The position numbers and the translations under genes are program-made. The notes under the pieces are model-generated. The model made no database searches and was not told the origin of the DNA. It saw nothing but the letters and a program-made list of their open reading frames with translations. DNA of 35,803 bases from a virus (taxonomy: Duplodnaviria; Heunggongvirae; Uroviricota; Caudoviricetes), in IMG/VR virus record IMGVR_UViG_2548876858_000018, one strand, 5' to 3'. How positions within the stretch are numbered: the first letter of the stretch is position 1; each line of letters starts with the position of its first letter. Shown in pieces: positions 21,999-26,845 of the stretch.

Positions 21999-23554
21999 GC
22001 ACAAAATTTTATACCCTGCTGACGGATATTGGCGCGGCGAAACTTGCCAGCGCCGCCGCGCTCGGTGTGCCGCTAAAAATTACCCATATGGCGGTGGGCG
22101 ATGGCGGTGGAGTATTGCCAACGCCGGACGCAAAGCAGACGGCACTGGTAAATGAGAAACGCCGGGCTGCGCTGAATATGCTTTATATCGACCCGCAGAA
22201 CAGCAGCCAGATTATTGCCGAACAGGTGATCCCTGAAAACGAGGGCGGTTGGTGGATACGTGAAGTGGGCTTGTTTGATGAGTCCGGGGCATTGATTGCC
22301 GTGGGCAACTGCCCGGAAAGCTATAAGCCGCAACTGGCTGAAGGTAGCGGGCGCACTCAGACCGTGCGCATGGTGCTGATTACCAGCAGCACGGACAATA
22401 TCACCCTGAAAATCGACCCTGCTGTAGTGCTGGCAACCCGCAAGTATGTGGATGACAAGGCACTGGAGCTGAAGGTGTACGCGGATGATCAGATGGCAAA
22501 ACATCTTGCCGCACCGGACCCGCATTCACAGTACGCGCCAAAAGCCAGCCCGACATTTACCGGAACCCCCAAAGCGCCAACGCCAGCGGCGGGGAATAAT
22601 ACCACGCAGGTTGCGACCACTGCGTTTGTACAGGCGGCACTGACGGCCCTTATTAATGGTGCGCCAGCCACGCTGGACACGCTGAAAGAAATAGCCGCAG
22701 CCATTAACAATGATCCGAATTTCAGTACCACCATTAACAATGCGCTGGCACTTAAAGCACCGTTGTCGAGTCCGGCACTCACCGGAACGCCAACAGCCCC
22801 CACGGCGGCGCAGTCGGTCAACAATACACAGATTGCCACTACGGCTTTTGTGAAATCGGCGATTGCAGGAATGGTGGGTTCTGCACCTGCTGCACTGGAT
22901 ACACTGAACGAACTGGCGGCGGCACTGGGGAATGATCCGAACTTTGCCACGACAATGCTTAATGCGCTGGCAGGTAAACAACCGCTGGACAATACGCTTA
23001 CCAATTTGAGTGGAAAGGATGTAGCTGGTCTTCTCACATACCTTGGTTTGGGAGAAGGTTCGGCATTACCCGTTGGTGTGCCTGTTCCGTGGCCTTCCGC
23101 CACTCCGCCAACAGGCTGGCTGAAATGCAACGGTGCAGCATTTTCTGCTGAAGAATACCCGGAACTGGCAAAGGCTTACCCGACAAATAAATTGCCTGAT
23201 TTACGTGGTGAGTTTATTCGTGGCTGGGATGACGGACGTGGTATGGATACGGGGAGGGCAATATTATCAGCTCAGGGCGATGCCATACGTAATATCTATG
23301 GTGAGTTCAGAACTGTAAACACTGAAAATTATTCAATATGGGAAACAGCAGGCTCGTTTAAGGGGGCCATAGTGCCATTGAGTCCCTCTACAAACAATAG
23401 TTATTTCTCCTTAACCAGAAGTATGGTGACAGAAAGAGCAGACGGCGCTGTTTACCCAAAAGTGATTGGCCTTGATGCTTCAAGAATTGTTCCAACTGCA
23501 AACGAAAATCGACCCCGTAACATTGCCTTTAATTATATCGTGAGGGCTGCCTGA
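21995..23554 (+). CDS. H: Tail fibre protein H (constant N-terminal part plus currently expressed variable C-terminal cassette)
   Basis: N-terminus MSTKFYTLLTDIGAAKLA...MAVGDGGG matches P2 H; C-terminal part after 23057 lies inside the invertible segment. Confidence 0.85.
   Translation: MSTKFYTLLTDIGAAKLASAAALGVPLKITHMAVGDGGGVLPTPDAKQTALVNEKRRAALNMLYIDPQNSSQIIAEQVIPENEGGWWIREVGLFDESGALIAVGNCPESYKPQLAEGSGRTQTVRMVLITSSTDNITLKIDPAVVLATRKYVDDKALELKVYADDQMAKHLAAPDPHSQYAPKASPTFTGTPKAPTPAAGNNTTQVATTAFVQAALTALINGAPATLDTLKEIAAAINNDPNFSTTINNALALKAPLSSPALTGTPTAPTAAQSVNNTQIATTAFVKSAIAGMVGSAPAALDTLNELAAALGNDPNFATTMLNALAGKQPLDNTLTNLSGKDVAGLLTYLGLGEGSALPVGVPVPWPSATPPTGWLKCNGAAFSAEEYPELAKAYPTNKLPDLRGEFIRGWDDGRGMDTGRAILSAQGDAIRNIYGEFRTVNTENYSIWETAGSFKGAIVPLSPSTNNSYFSLTRSMVTERADGAVYPKVIGLDASRIVPTANENRPRNIAFNYIVRAA
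23043..23057. repeat. Left inversion crossover site (inverted-repeat core TTGGTTTGGGAGAAG) inside H
   Basis: 15-bp exact match to reverse complement of 24936-24950. Confidence 0.55.
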
Positions 23555-24156
23555 TGGATAAAGCTATATTAAATAAGGAACTCATCGCCACAAAGGCGGG
23601 AGATATTACCGTTTATAATTATGATGGTGAAACGCGGGAATATATTTCTACATCAACTGAATATCTTGCTGTTGGCGTCGGTATCCCGGCATGTTCTTGT
23701 TTAGATGCGCCAGTTACACATAAAGCTGGTTATGCTATCTGCCGCTCAGCAGATTTTAACTCATGGGAATATGTGCCAGACCATCGCGGTGAAATTGTCT
23801 ATAACACCGAAACGGGAGATGCCAAAGAAATCACAGCACCAGGCGACTATCCCGAAAAAACAACCACTCTCGCACCGTTAACGCCATACGATAAATGGGA
23901 TGGTGAGAAATGGGTGACCGATACTGAGGCACAGCATAGCGCCGCAGTAGAAGCGGCAGAAGCACAGCGCCAGTCGCTGATTGATGCTGCAATGGCTTCT
24001 ATCAGTCTGATTCAACTGAAATTACAGGCCGGGCGGAAGCTGACGCAGACAGAAAACACCCGACTTAACGCCGTGCTGGATTACATTGACGCGGTGACGG
24101 CAACAGATACCAGCACCGCGCCGGATGTCATCTGGCCTGAACTGCCGGAGGCGTAG
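23554..24156 (+). CDS. G: Tail fibre assembly chaperone G (P2 gpG family)
   Basis: 200 aa; N-terminal region resembles tail fibre assembly proteins. Confidence 0.8.
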   Translation: MDKAILNKELIATKAGDITVYNYDGETREYISTSTEYLAVGVGIPACSCLDAPVTHKAGYAICRSADFNSWEYVPDHRGEIVYNTETGDAKEITAPGDYPEKTTTLAPLTPYDKWDGEKWVTDTEAQHSAAVEAAEAQRQSLIDAAMASISLIQLKLQAGRKLTQTENTRLNAVLDYIDAVTATDTSTAPDVIWPELPEA

Positions 24157-24601
24157 GCCATTCAATATCTGGAGCACTGGAGGTATCAACCAGTTCCAGT
24201 GCGTCCAGATAATCCAGCCACAAATTATATTGCGCCAGTTCCTCACCTTTCAGACGACCAATAGCCGCTTTACCGGGCCATTGTTTACTGTTCATGTATT
24301 CGTTGACCTGGTTAATCAATTGCTGCTTTTTCAATTCGGCTGCGGCAATCTGTTCCTCATGTGTTGGTGGTGGAATATCTGCCCATGATGGCATTCCATC
24401 TTCACCAACGCACCTGTATTTTCCTTCTGGTGCTGGTTTAAGTGCAAATTCTTCGAAAACAGAATATTTAACGGGTTTTGCATCTGCTGGAAAAGAATTA
24501 GATTTAATATATTCTTGTTTCAAATGCTCAGGGTAAAATGCATTATTTATAGAGCTGTAGTATATTATGCTCGACATTTTATAATCCTTATGGAAGCTCA
24601 A
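24128..24601 (-). CDS. Alternative tail fibre assembly chaperone (inverted cassette)
   Basis: Convergent with G; C-terminal ...DYLDA...TDTS.APD..WPE/TPP conserved with G on + strand; start uncertain. Confidence 0.7.
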   Translation of the reverse strand: MSFHKDYKMSSIIYYSSINNAFYPEHLKQEYIKSNSFPADAKPVKYSVFEEFALKPAPEGKYRCVGEDGMPSWADIPPPTHEEQIAAAELKKQQLINQVNEYMNSKQWPGKAAIGRLKGEELAQYNLWLDYLDALELVDTSSAPDIEWPTPPAVQAR

Positions 24602-24990
24602 TATCCCAGTACCAGAAAATCACCTGTTTCAGTTGCGGCTGAAGTTGATATAGTCCTTGCAGCACAAATGGCCTTTAATTCTGTTTTTGTTAGTTCGGAC
24701 ACTCCCCAGGAATTAATACCTATTGGGCCTGTGGATACTGCGGTTTTTTCAGCAATAAATGCCATAAATGCAGAATTTGGAAAAGCAATAGGATAACTTC
24801 CTGTTGCAACACCAGTTTTACTATCAGAAGGTCCGATTCTTCCCCATTGGATAATAAAAGACTTCCCCTCTATAACAGGGATTTTTATCCAGCCAGATGA
24901 TGATAAAGAGCCACTAATCGCAGGCAATTTGGCCGCTTCTCCCAAACCAACGTTTATGAAAATGCAGAGATAACGGCTAACTGGCATCAT
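24598..24990 (-). CDS. Alternative tail fibre C-terminal cassette (silent in this orientation)
   Basis: Minus-strand ORF whose 5' end contains the crossover-site repeat; lacks own N-terminal constant region. Confidence 0.6.
   Translation of the reverse strand: MMPVSRYLCIFINVGLGEAAKLPAISGSLSSSGWIKIPVIEGKSFIIQWGRIGPSDSKTGVATGSYPIAFPNSAFMAFIAEKTAVSTGPIGINSWGVSELTKTELKAICAARTISTSAATETGDFLVLGY
24936..24950. repeat. Right inversion crossover site (inverted copy of 23043-23057)
   Basis: Reverse complement equals TTGGTTTGGGAGAAG; lies just upstream of invertase gene. Confidence 0.55.
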
Positions 24991-26173: not shown

Positions 26174-26433
26174 AATATCGTATTTTGTTCCTCCAGTCGG
26201 CGAACCTGCTTTTCCAGCTCGCGAATACGTTGCTGTTCAGGGGTAATGGGTGTTGCAGAGGGCGCAATACCTTGGCGCTCTCGCCTGAGCTGACGTACCC
26301 AGCTCTCAAGCGTGGTAGAACCGACATTCATCGCCTCACTGGCTTGTCGATACGAATAGCCCTTATCAACAATCAGCTGTGCACATTCCAGCCTGAACTC
26401 AGGGGTGAAAGTACGTTTGGTTTTCTTGTTCAT
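26122..26433 (-). CDS. IS911-like transposase OrfA (HTH/leucine-zipper)
   Basis: [27 protein letters not shown]... resembles IS911 OrfA; ends ...[15 protein letters not shown]. Confidence 0.8.
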
Positions 26434-26505
26434 TAAGTCACCTGTTTTGTGTTGAGGTGAGAATATCACCTTTAATCAGGTGGCCAAATTTACTGTGCCA
26501 CTACA

Positions 26506-26845
26506 GATAGAAGAGTTGCGCCAGCGTGGTGTGAATTTCAGAAGCCTGACTGACAGTATTGATACCAGTACCCCAATGGGCCGTTTCTTTTTTCATGTCA
26601 TGGGTGCCCTGGCTGAAATGGAACGCGAACTGATAGTTGAACGTACCAGGGCAGGGCTGGCTGCAGCTCGTGCCAAAGGCAGAGTAGGTGGACGCCGTCC
26701 TAAGTTGACCACCGAACAGTGGGCACAGATTGGGCGTTTACTCGAGGCCGGAGAATCAAGACAGCGTATTGCACTGATTTTTGATGTAGGCGTTTCTACC
26801 ATTTATAGAAAATTTCCGGCAAATAAGATCAATGAATCCCCCTGA
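26506..26845 (+). pseudogene. Gin/Pin/Cin-family serine DNA invertase, C-terminal fragment
   Basis: ...ELRQRGVNFRSLTDSIDTSTPMGRFFFHVMGALAEMEREL...GGRRPKLT... matches Gin C-terminal two-thirds; removing IS plus one GAT copy restores frame (…LVTLIEELRQRG…). Confidence 0.85.

Follow-up and report, generated by a model that had tools for sequence, protein, structure and literature searches.

A tail-fiber inversion switch with an insertion sequence in its invertase gene in a P2/186-like prophage, and a flipped copy of the interrupted allele

The viral sequence IMGVR_UViG_2548876858_000018 (IMG/VR; 35,803 nucleotides, here called the window, by which we mean the whole stretch of DNA analyzed) is a complete P2/186-like prophage integrated beside ssrA, in which the tail-fiber gene H and the genes that follow it very probably form a two-state switch of the Pin type, worked by a serine invertase of the Hin/Gin/Cin/Pin family. 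In the same reading, which we hold with considerable confidence, the invertase of the prophage itself has been knocked out by the recent arrival of an insertion sequence (IS), and the segment would still be a substrate for an invertase supplied in trans. Invertible tail-fiber segments of the Pin/Gin type are textbook systems that are common in P2-like prophages of Escherichia coli, and genes broken by IS elements are likewise common; what is unusual here, and nothing else is, is the knock-out of the invertase by an IS together with a hint that the switch is operated across prophages. What is new is that the same IS allele is present on 20 public contigs, and that one of these (contig L015) carries the segment flipped exactly at the crossover core.

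Layout of the switch and its interrupted invertase gene

A first-pass annotation of the window had reported an exact 15-bp inverted repeat, TTGGTTTGGGAGAAG at 23043-23057 with its reverse complement at 24936-24950, bracketing the segment. The repeat is present as reported, and a repeat search extends the pair to 27 nt at 85%, but the functional sites are 26 bp long and the crossover falls at the outer edge of the 15-bp repeat. This emerged from a scan with a palindromised 26-mer, run on the window, on e14 of MG1655, and on Mu, which finds two sites in the window, each of the form 12-2-12 (12-bp half-sites around a 2-bp core), inverted to each other and with identical cores (AA/TT), as is the case for Fis/enhancer-dependent invertases. 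The same scan also recovers both e14 sites and both gix sites of Mu, and the Mu cores coincide with the annotated boundaries of the G segment. The conserved inner half-site, the 2-bp core, and a single further base make up the 15-bp repeat. The 14-mer TTCTCCCAAACCAA (half-site plus core) has exactly two copies in the window, inverted to each other, with a chance expectation of 0.01 (up to 1 mismatch), and none of 100 shuffles gave two or more matches. Strand exchange is expected at 23043/44 and 24949/50, and the two pix-like sites would bracket an invertible segment of 1.9 kb. A third crossover site, as in a shufflon, was sought and rejected, as relaxing the scan to 3 mismatches in the window adds nothing above chance; with no third site, this is a two-state switch and not a shufflon.

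Around these sites the genes have the layout of an invertible host-range switch, with the constant N-terminal part of H outside, and two in-frame C-terminal cassettes, each with a chaperone gene of its own, on opposite strands inside (Table 1). The open reading frames (ORFs) and their Pfam domains agree with the earlier placement of the H C-terminus and chaperone G on the plus strand and of an alternative tip and chaperone on the minus strand. We could also read GLGE across the repeat in both versions of H, as had been stated, with both fusions in frame. The full H gene (21995-23554, plus strand) encodes 519 aa. As an orphan ORF the alternative cassette extends to 24990 (24598-24990, minus strand, 130 aa), and the ORF of the alternative chaperone, taken from a TTG start, runs to 24601; public contigs call the 149-aa gene. 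Inversion would exchange everything downstream of H codon 349. In the present orientation H ends in the 169-aa Collar tip, followed by the TfaE-like chaperone, and in the other orientation H would end in the 116-aa gp53-like tip, followed by the TfaP-like chaperone. When the segment is inverted in silico, an in-frame H' fusion of 466 aa results, and a protein exactly as predicted is found in public data (P0135, WP_248842969.1). Fourteen contigs carrying H' were read, and the order after H' in public contigs is the 149-aa chaperone gene, the reversed TfaE and Collar cassette, and the invertase gene. Given the tips that the two states encode, their virions presumably differ in receptor specificity.

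Prophages that have baseplate genes of the Mu type (Gp45/46/48; L028, L030, L031, and L032), some of them beside a gene of the Dus family (PF01207), also contain the exact 200-aa TfaE-like chaperone of the window. These prophages carry a Pin-like invertase of their own and the cassette is found in both orientations, indicating that the cassette and invertase form a module common to unrelated tail modules.

The gene immediately outside the right site had been described as a serine invertase gene with a Gin-like N-terminus, split after about 78 codons and resuming at 26506. Its location and family hold and it can be assigned more closely to the Pin type, the reconstructed protein being 86.7% identical to PinE versus 74.6% to Gin. 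The whole gene spans 25018-26845 and the break is at nucleotide 230, inside codon 77, rather than after codon 78; the point of resumption stands, with the 3' fragment at 26506/26509-26845. Reading through from the 5' fragment gives a product of 81 aa that ends in the IS-derived residues VVVK, and the interrupted locus thus offers this N-terminal product and an orphan C-terminal fragment in place of an intact, expressible invertase gene. The half with Ser9 is separated by the IS from the remainder of the catalytic domain and the DNA-binding domain and, with the catalytic domain cut in two, neither fragment can be an active recombinase. A scan for promoters and terminators around the invertase gene found nothing above chance.

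Removal in silico of the IS and one GAT restores an intact ORF of 188 aa that starts MLIGYVRVS(9)T and has the make-up of a small serine recombinase (a Resolvase domain with a serine near position 9-10, a C-terminal HTH_7 domain, and a length of about 185-195 aa). The reconstructed protein shares 99.5% identity with the invertase from the P2-like prophage in E. coli W and 98.4% with that of L001, and it matches the Gin structures 3UJ3 and 4M6F (E=1e-92). Exactly this 188-aa sequence is present on at least 1000 public contigs, which makes the insertion recent and shows that no decay has followed it. In Hin, Fis or the enhancer is contacted by residues K47/R48/K51 and Q151/R154/L155, which are reported to be conserved in no recombinases other than Fis-dependent invertases (PMC3798978). 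The window sequences RPGLKKLLR and EQWAQIGRLL align to RPGLKRALK and AEWEQAGRLL of Gin, and these invertase-specific contact residues are present, as the basic residues of helix B and the Q..RL motif, where the Hin numbering was transferred by eye and the alignment made to Gin.

The interrupting element had been called a 1258-bp IS911-like element, and both its size and its kinship to IS911 are borne out, but it is a distinct IS of the IS3 family. It has TG..CA ends with imperfect terminal repeats (TGTAGTGG...TTGGCCAC), orfA and orfB with a -1 frameshift at A6G, and a target duplication of 3 bp (GAT, at 25245-47 and 26506-08), within the 3-4 bp of that family. The ends, similar terminal repeats, the A6G -1 frameshift between orfA and orfB, the 3-bp duplication, and a length of about 1.25 kb are all shared with IS911, whereas identity to the IS911A fragment of K-12 MG1655 is only about 67% over 375 nt, and IS911 itself was rejected on this ground. 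Copies 100% identical to the element are present in many E. coli genomes, where the Prokaryotic Genome Annotation Pipeline (PGAP) annotates an IS3 family transposase with programmed frameshift. In three metagenome-derived contigs (L007, L010, and L012) nearly all mismatches to the window lie inside the IS (compared over 25529-26398), and L012 has further clusters of mismatches in H (22753-23002) and G (23938-24072). These mismatches probably reflect variation among IS copies or their collapse during assembly, plus local recombination in the fiber genes.

Table 1. Features of the tail-fiber switch (positions in the window)
Feature	Position	Strand	Basis or remark
Constant N-terminal part of H, common to both fiber versions	21995-23042	+	349 codons; Pfam Phage_tail_fib N-terminal domain (P2-type), E=7e-65
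Left crossover site, TTCTCACATACC TT GGTTTGGGAGAA	23031-23056		12-2-12, core 23043-23044; flipped relatives cease to be collinear at this site
Expressed H C-terminal cassette, 169 aa, Collar domain, currently ON	23045-23554	+	Pfam Collar, E=4e-15; 58.7% identity to the e14 StfE C-terminus
Chaperone G, TfaE-like, 200 aa	23554-24156	+	Pfam Caudo_TAP; 91% identity to e14 TfaE
Alternative chaperone, TfaP-like, 149 aa from ATG at 24577	24128-24577	-	Pfam Caudo_TAP, E=2e-35; 60% identity to e14 TfaP over 98 aa
Alternative H C-terminal cassette, 116 aa, gp53-like C-terminal domain, currently OFF	24598-24948	-	Pfam Gp53-like_C, E=3e-9
Right crossover site, TTCTCCCAAACC AA CGTTTATGAAAA	24937-24962		Core 24949-24950; 26/26 identical to the pinE-side site in e14 (MG1655); recombinant junction of L015 exactly here
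5' fragment of Pin-type invertase gene, codons 1-76 and two bases of codon 77, with catalytic Ser9	25018-25247	+	Pfam Resolvase positions 2-86
Candidate recombinational enhancer	25040-25102		Two weak Fis-like 15-mers centered at 25047 and 25095, 48 bp apart
IS3-family insertion sequence, IS911 relative, 1258 bp	25248-26505	-	orfA (HTH_Tnp_1), orfB (rve), A6G frameshift motif
3' fragment of invertase gene, remaining catalytic domain and HTH_7 DNA-binding domain	26506-26845	+	Pfam Resolvase positions 86-144 and HTH_7

Orientation in relatives and in the interrupted allele

In relatives of the prophage the segment inverts in nature. The flanks in E. coli 4314 (L005) are 99.8% and 99.95% identical to the window and the interior lies on the opposite strand, with breakpoints at 23057 and 24936; E. 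coli W (L004), PEC148 (L006), and e14 have the same pattern of a reversed interior. Both recombinant junctions are exact in L019 (GCA_002075175.1), which is flipped and has an intact invertase, and in L023 (GCA_001265655.1) the left flank has 5 mismatches in 11 kb and the interior is 100% identical but reversed. The constant part of H is 99.8-99.96% identical to that of relatives with the flipped segment. The segment is thus seen in both orientations joined at the core, flipped in L005, L019, L023, and L015, and not flipped in the window and L007-L014. Inversion has been measured in cultures for e14 and for P2-like prophage loci (PMC4272514). A chimeric query for the flipped junction gave no place covering at least 80% of it among 5426 complete E. 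coli genomes, a negative that reflects the genome collection and not the biology, as the exact H' protein exists elsewhere. We note that in the P2-like prophage of E. coli W (L004 3105-4282, NC_017664.1) a different IS3-family element sits inside the invertible segment, beside a shortened H, a second and independent IS strike on such a switch.

The 81-aa product ending in VVVK is peculiar to this insertion, and the 20 public contigs that encode it come from NCBI assemblies (GCA_002075135.1 and GCA_000690965.1), ENA metagenome scaffolds, and Logan assemblies. Eleven of the 12 contigs that were read have the orientation of the window and the twelfth, L015, is flipped; for the remaining eight the orientation was taken from their grouping with unflipped places. 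The IS junction is in none of the 5426 complete RefSeq E. coli genomes, and an exact 32-mer across it has no match in JGI metagenome contigs or in GTDB species representatives. In L015 (Logan ERR13952114_257; 1581 bp), positions 1-1155 correspond to the window from 24212 down to 23045 on the reverse strand and positions 1156-1581 to window 24936-25361, including 114 bp of the IS, both at 100% identity, and BLAST differences are found solely in the outer half-site beyond the core. Going by its sequence, L015 is precisely what inversion at the core would yield in a lineage whose invertase is already dead, and inversion in trans by another enzyme of the Pin family would be the most economical, and to us the likeliest, reading of it. 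The first-pass view that the switch is frozen unless an invertase acts in trans is borne out as to the broken invertase, and its proviso fits L015, but with one of the 20 allele contigs flipped at the core, "locked" is not absolute.

The IS leaves both sites untouched, as well as the first 230 bp of the gene with its presumed Fis-dependent enhancer region, and with these intact the segment would remain a competent substrate for a related invertase provided in trans by e14 or another prophage. The candidate recombinational enhancer was suggested by a crude Fis-consensus scan of what is also coding sequence, in which the Fis-like 15-mers lie at +98 and +146 from the right core (about 100 bp); in both e14 pinE and Mu gin the pair recurs at +97 and +145. 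For Hin, the distance from hixL to the proximal Fis site is about 100 bp (PMC3798978). Sequences related to the invertase gene are found in 4783 of the 5426 complete E. coli genomes, at a median of 2 places per genome. There is a precedent in Salmonella, where Kutsukake and colleagues (2006, among the references of PMC4272514) reportedly described a second invertase that contributes to flagellar phase variation by acting in trans on the hin segment. This second enzyme is reportedly Fin of the P2-like prophage Fels-2. The target in that system differs, being a flagellin promoter segment and not a tail fiber. We propose tentatively, and at slightly less than even chances, that the invertase of another resident prophage (e14 Pin, for example) still works the IS-inactivated switch at low frequency, one mobile element setting the host range of another, and that the IS allele persists in its lineage (several isolates and gut metagenome assemblies) because a fiber mostly locked ON with the Collar tip is tolerated or favored.

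Several points weigh against parts of the broader reading. What points to flipping after the IS insertion is one Logan contig of 1.6 kb, and a second invertase in the host, the remaining genome of which lies outside the window, is presumed. Nor do the counts demonstrate locking: the IS allele stands at 19:1 and the rest at 65:14, which is not significant (Fisher p=0.29), and one orientation likewise prevails among all contigs with the exact H or H' protein (84 versus 14 contigs), so that the bias of the allele is not statistically different from that of H and H' in general. The assignment of the enhancer is weak, with crude scoring that is confounded by coding conservation, and different receptors are suggested solely by the unrelated folds of the two tips (Collar versus gp53-like).

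A contrasting explanation, unlikely but to be taken seriously, is that the switch is fully frozen and that L015 arose by homologous recombination with a flipped twin, by an independent insertion at the same site, or by chimeric assembly of a mixed sample. Nineteen of the 20 allele contigs share one orientation (counting the eight that were not read), flipped and near-identical prophages with an intact invertase (L019 and L023) are available as recombination partners, and L015 is a short contig from an automated assembly. A fully frozen switch is hard to square with the 100% identity of L015 to the window on both sides of a junction that falls exactly at the 2-bp core. Logan assemblies use k-mers of k=31 and, if that value applies here, the exact 15-bp repeat is shorter than the k-mer and k-mers across the junction must come from real reads. 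Moreover, L015 ends at the same position in the IS (window 25361) as L011 and L013, as an isolate of the same lineage would, and it is improbable that a second insertion would independently hit the same base and share both orientation and duplication.

The differences in orientation could also be attributed to exchange of cassettes by general recombination among mosaic phages, in place of site-specific inversion. Replacement does occur as well, as several flipped relatives, some with other cassettes, have interiors with only 86-94% identity to the window, and the same chaperone is present in prophages with a Mu-like baseplate. As an account of the orientations, however, we consider exchange very improbable, given that L019, L023, and L015 have reversed interiors of 99.2-100% identity whose recombinant junctions fall exactly at the core, that the sites of the window match experimentally defined gix and pix sites, and that inversion of homologous segments was measured directly in cultures (PMC4272514). 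Least credible of all is an inverted repeat that arose by chance or survives as a relic, together with minus-strand ORFs that are remnants without function. An exact 15-bp inverted repeat within 2 kb is by itself not overwhelming, but this interpretation is refuted by the site scan, by the 14-mer statistics (expectation 0.01 with up to 1 mismatch), and by the in-frame H' fusion protein, intact in public genomes; both minus-strand ORFs, in addition, have significant Pfam domains.

Our preferred reading, a two-state switch that has lost its own invertase and would remain open to inversion in trans, implies that a knocked-out invertase need not freeze such a switch: the sites and presumed enhancer are intact, related sequences are present in most E. 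coli genomes, and one flipped contig was found. An assembled orientation is a snapshot of a two-state locus, and the lack of an intact invertase in cis is no proof of a fixed state. This bears on how the host range of a prophage is read from genome sequence, and has little importance beyond annotation.

Prophage setting

Within the window are an integrase gene, a CI-type repressor gene, a Dam-like methylase gene, gpA, and the late genes from Q/P to D/ogr, and, at the right end, smpB and ssrA. Between G and FI, in the position that Z/fun occupies in P2, is the invertase module. About 95 bp upstream of the tail-sheath gene FI, and past the stop codon of the invertase gene, we read a dyad, TGT-N12-ACA, at 26884-26901, which fits the Ogr/Delta-dependent late-promoter motif of P2. 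If it is a late promoter, no polar effect of the IS insertion on the FI-D tail operon would be expected.

Three further genes deserve mention. An ORF of 557 aa (9053-10726, plus strand) lies between a DinI-like gene (8423-8728) and the portal gene Q, where P2-like phages have their old/tin cargo hotspot; it belongs to no Pfam family, has only a weak PADLOC match to DitB (E=7e-10), and is possibly a cargo gene for anti-phage defense. At the left edge of the window, an ORF of 343 aa (1-1032, minus strand) adjoins the integrase gene, has no Pfam or PADLOC match, and is either cargo at the prophage end or a host gene. The Dam-like gene (4815-5732, plus strand; Pfam E=2e-75) encodes a D12-class N6-adenine methyltransferase, lies directly upstream of the replication gene A, and is scored by PADLOC as an orphan methyltransferase.

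Comparison with known invertible segments

The architecture of the Mu G, P1 C, and e14 P segments, to which the locus had been likened at the outset, is matched here, with 12-2-12 inverted sites, two tips with their chaperones, an invertase gene outside, and both orientations among relatives. By sequence, the switch is closest to Pin and the P segment of e14. The invertase-proximal sites are identical at 26 of 26 positions, the core AA and inner half-site are the same, the invertases are 86.7% and the TfaE chaperones 91% identical, and the Collar tip and the TfaP-type chaperone are homologous. The gene order is also the same (fiber, chaperone, reversed chaperone, reversed fiber tip, invertase). 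In contrast, e14 is a defective lambdoid element with a short constant fiber part (ycfK/StfP), whereas the window holds a complete P2/186-like prophage with the H N-terminus of P2. The outer half of the left site is not the same, the Collar/TfaE cassette is OFF in MG1655, opposite to its state in the window, and pinE is intact where the invertase gene of the window is split by the IS.

Mu and Gin share the mechanism and layout, with 12-2-12 sites, two fiber C-termini (S/S'), two chaperones (U/U'), and the invertase just outside the right site, and Gin is 74.6% identical over its full length. The Mu core is GA/TC rather than AA/TT, the Mu segment is 3 kb long, and the fiber cassettes are unrelated or weakly related. 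Of the same phage type as the window are the P2-like prophage loci of E. coli (for example, in enteropathogenic E. coli [EPEC] E2348/69), the phages 500465-1 and Cartapus, and the 'P2' of O157:H43 T22. These have the invertase gene between the tail-fiber and chaperone genes and the tail-sheath gene FI, as in the window, and the phage records annotate the same gene set; phase variation of P2-like prophage tail-fiber loci has been measured in culture (PMC4272514). In contrast to the window, they carry unbroken invertases, and one of the EPEC loci, with three repeats, has four states.

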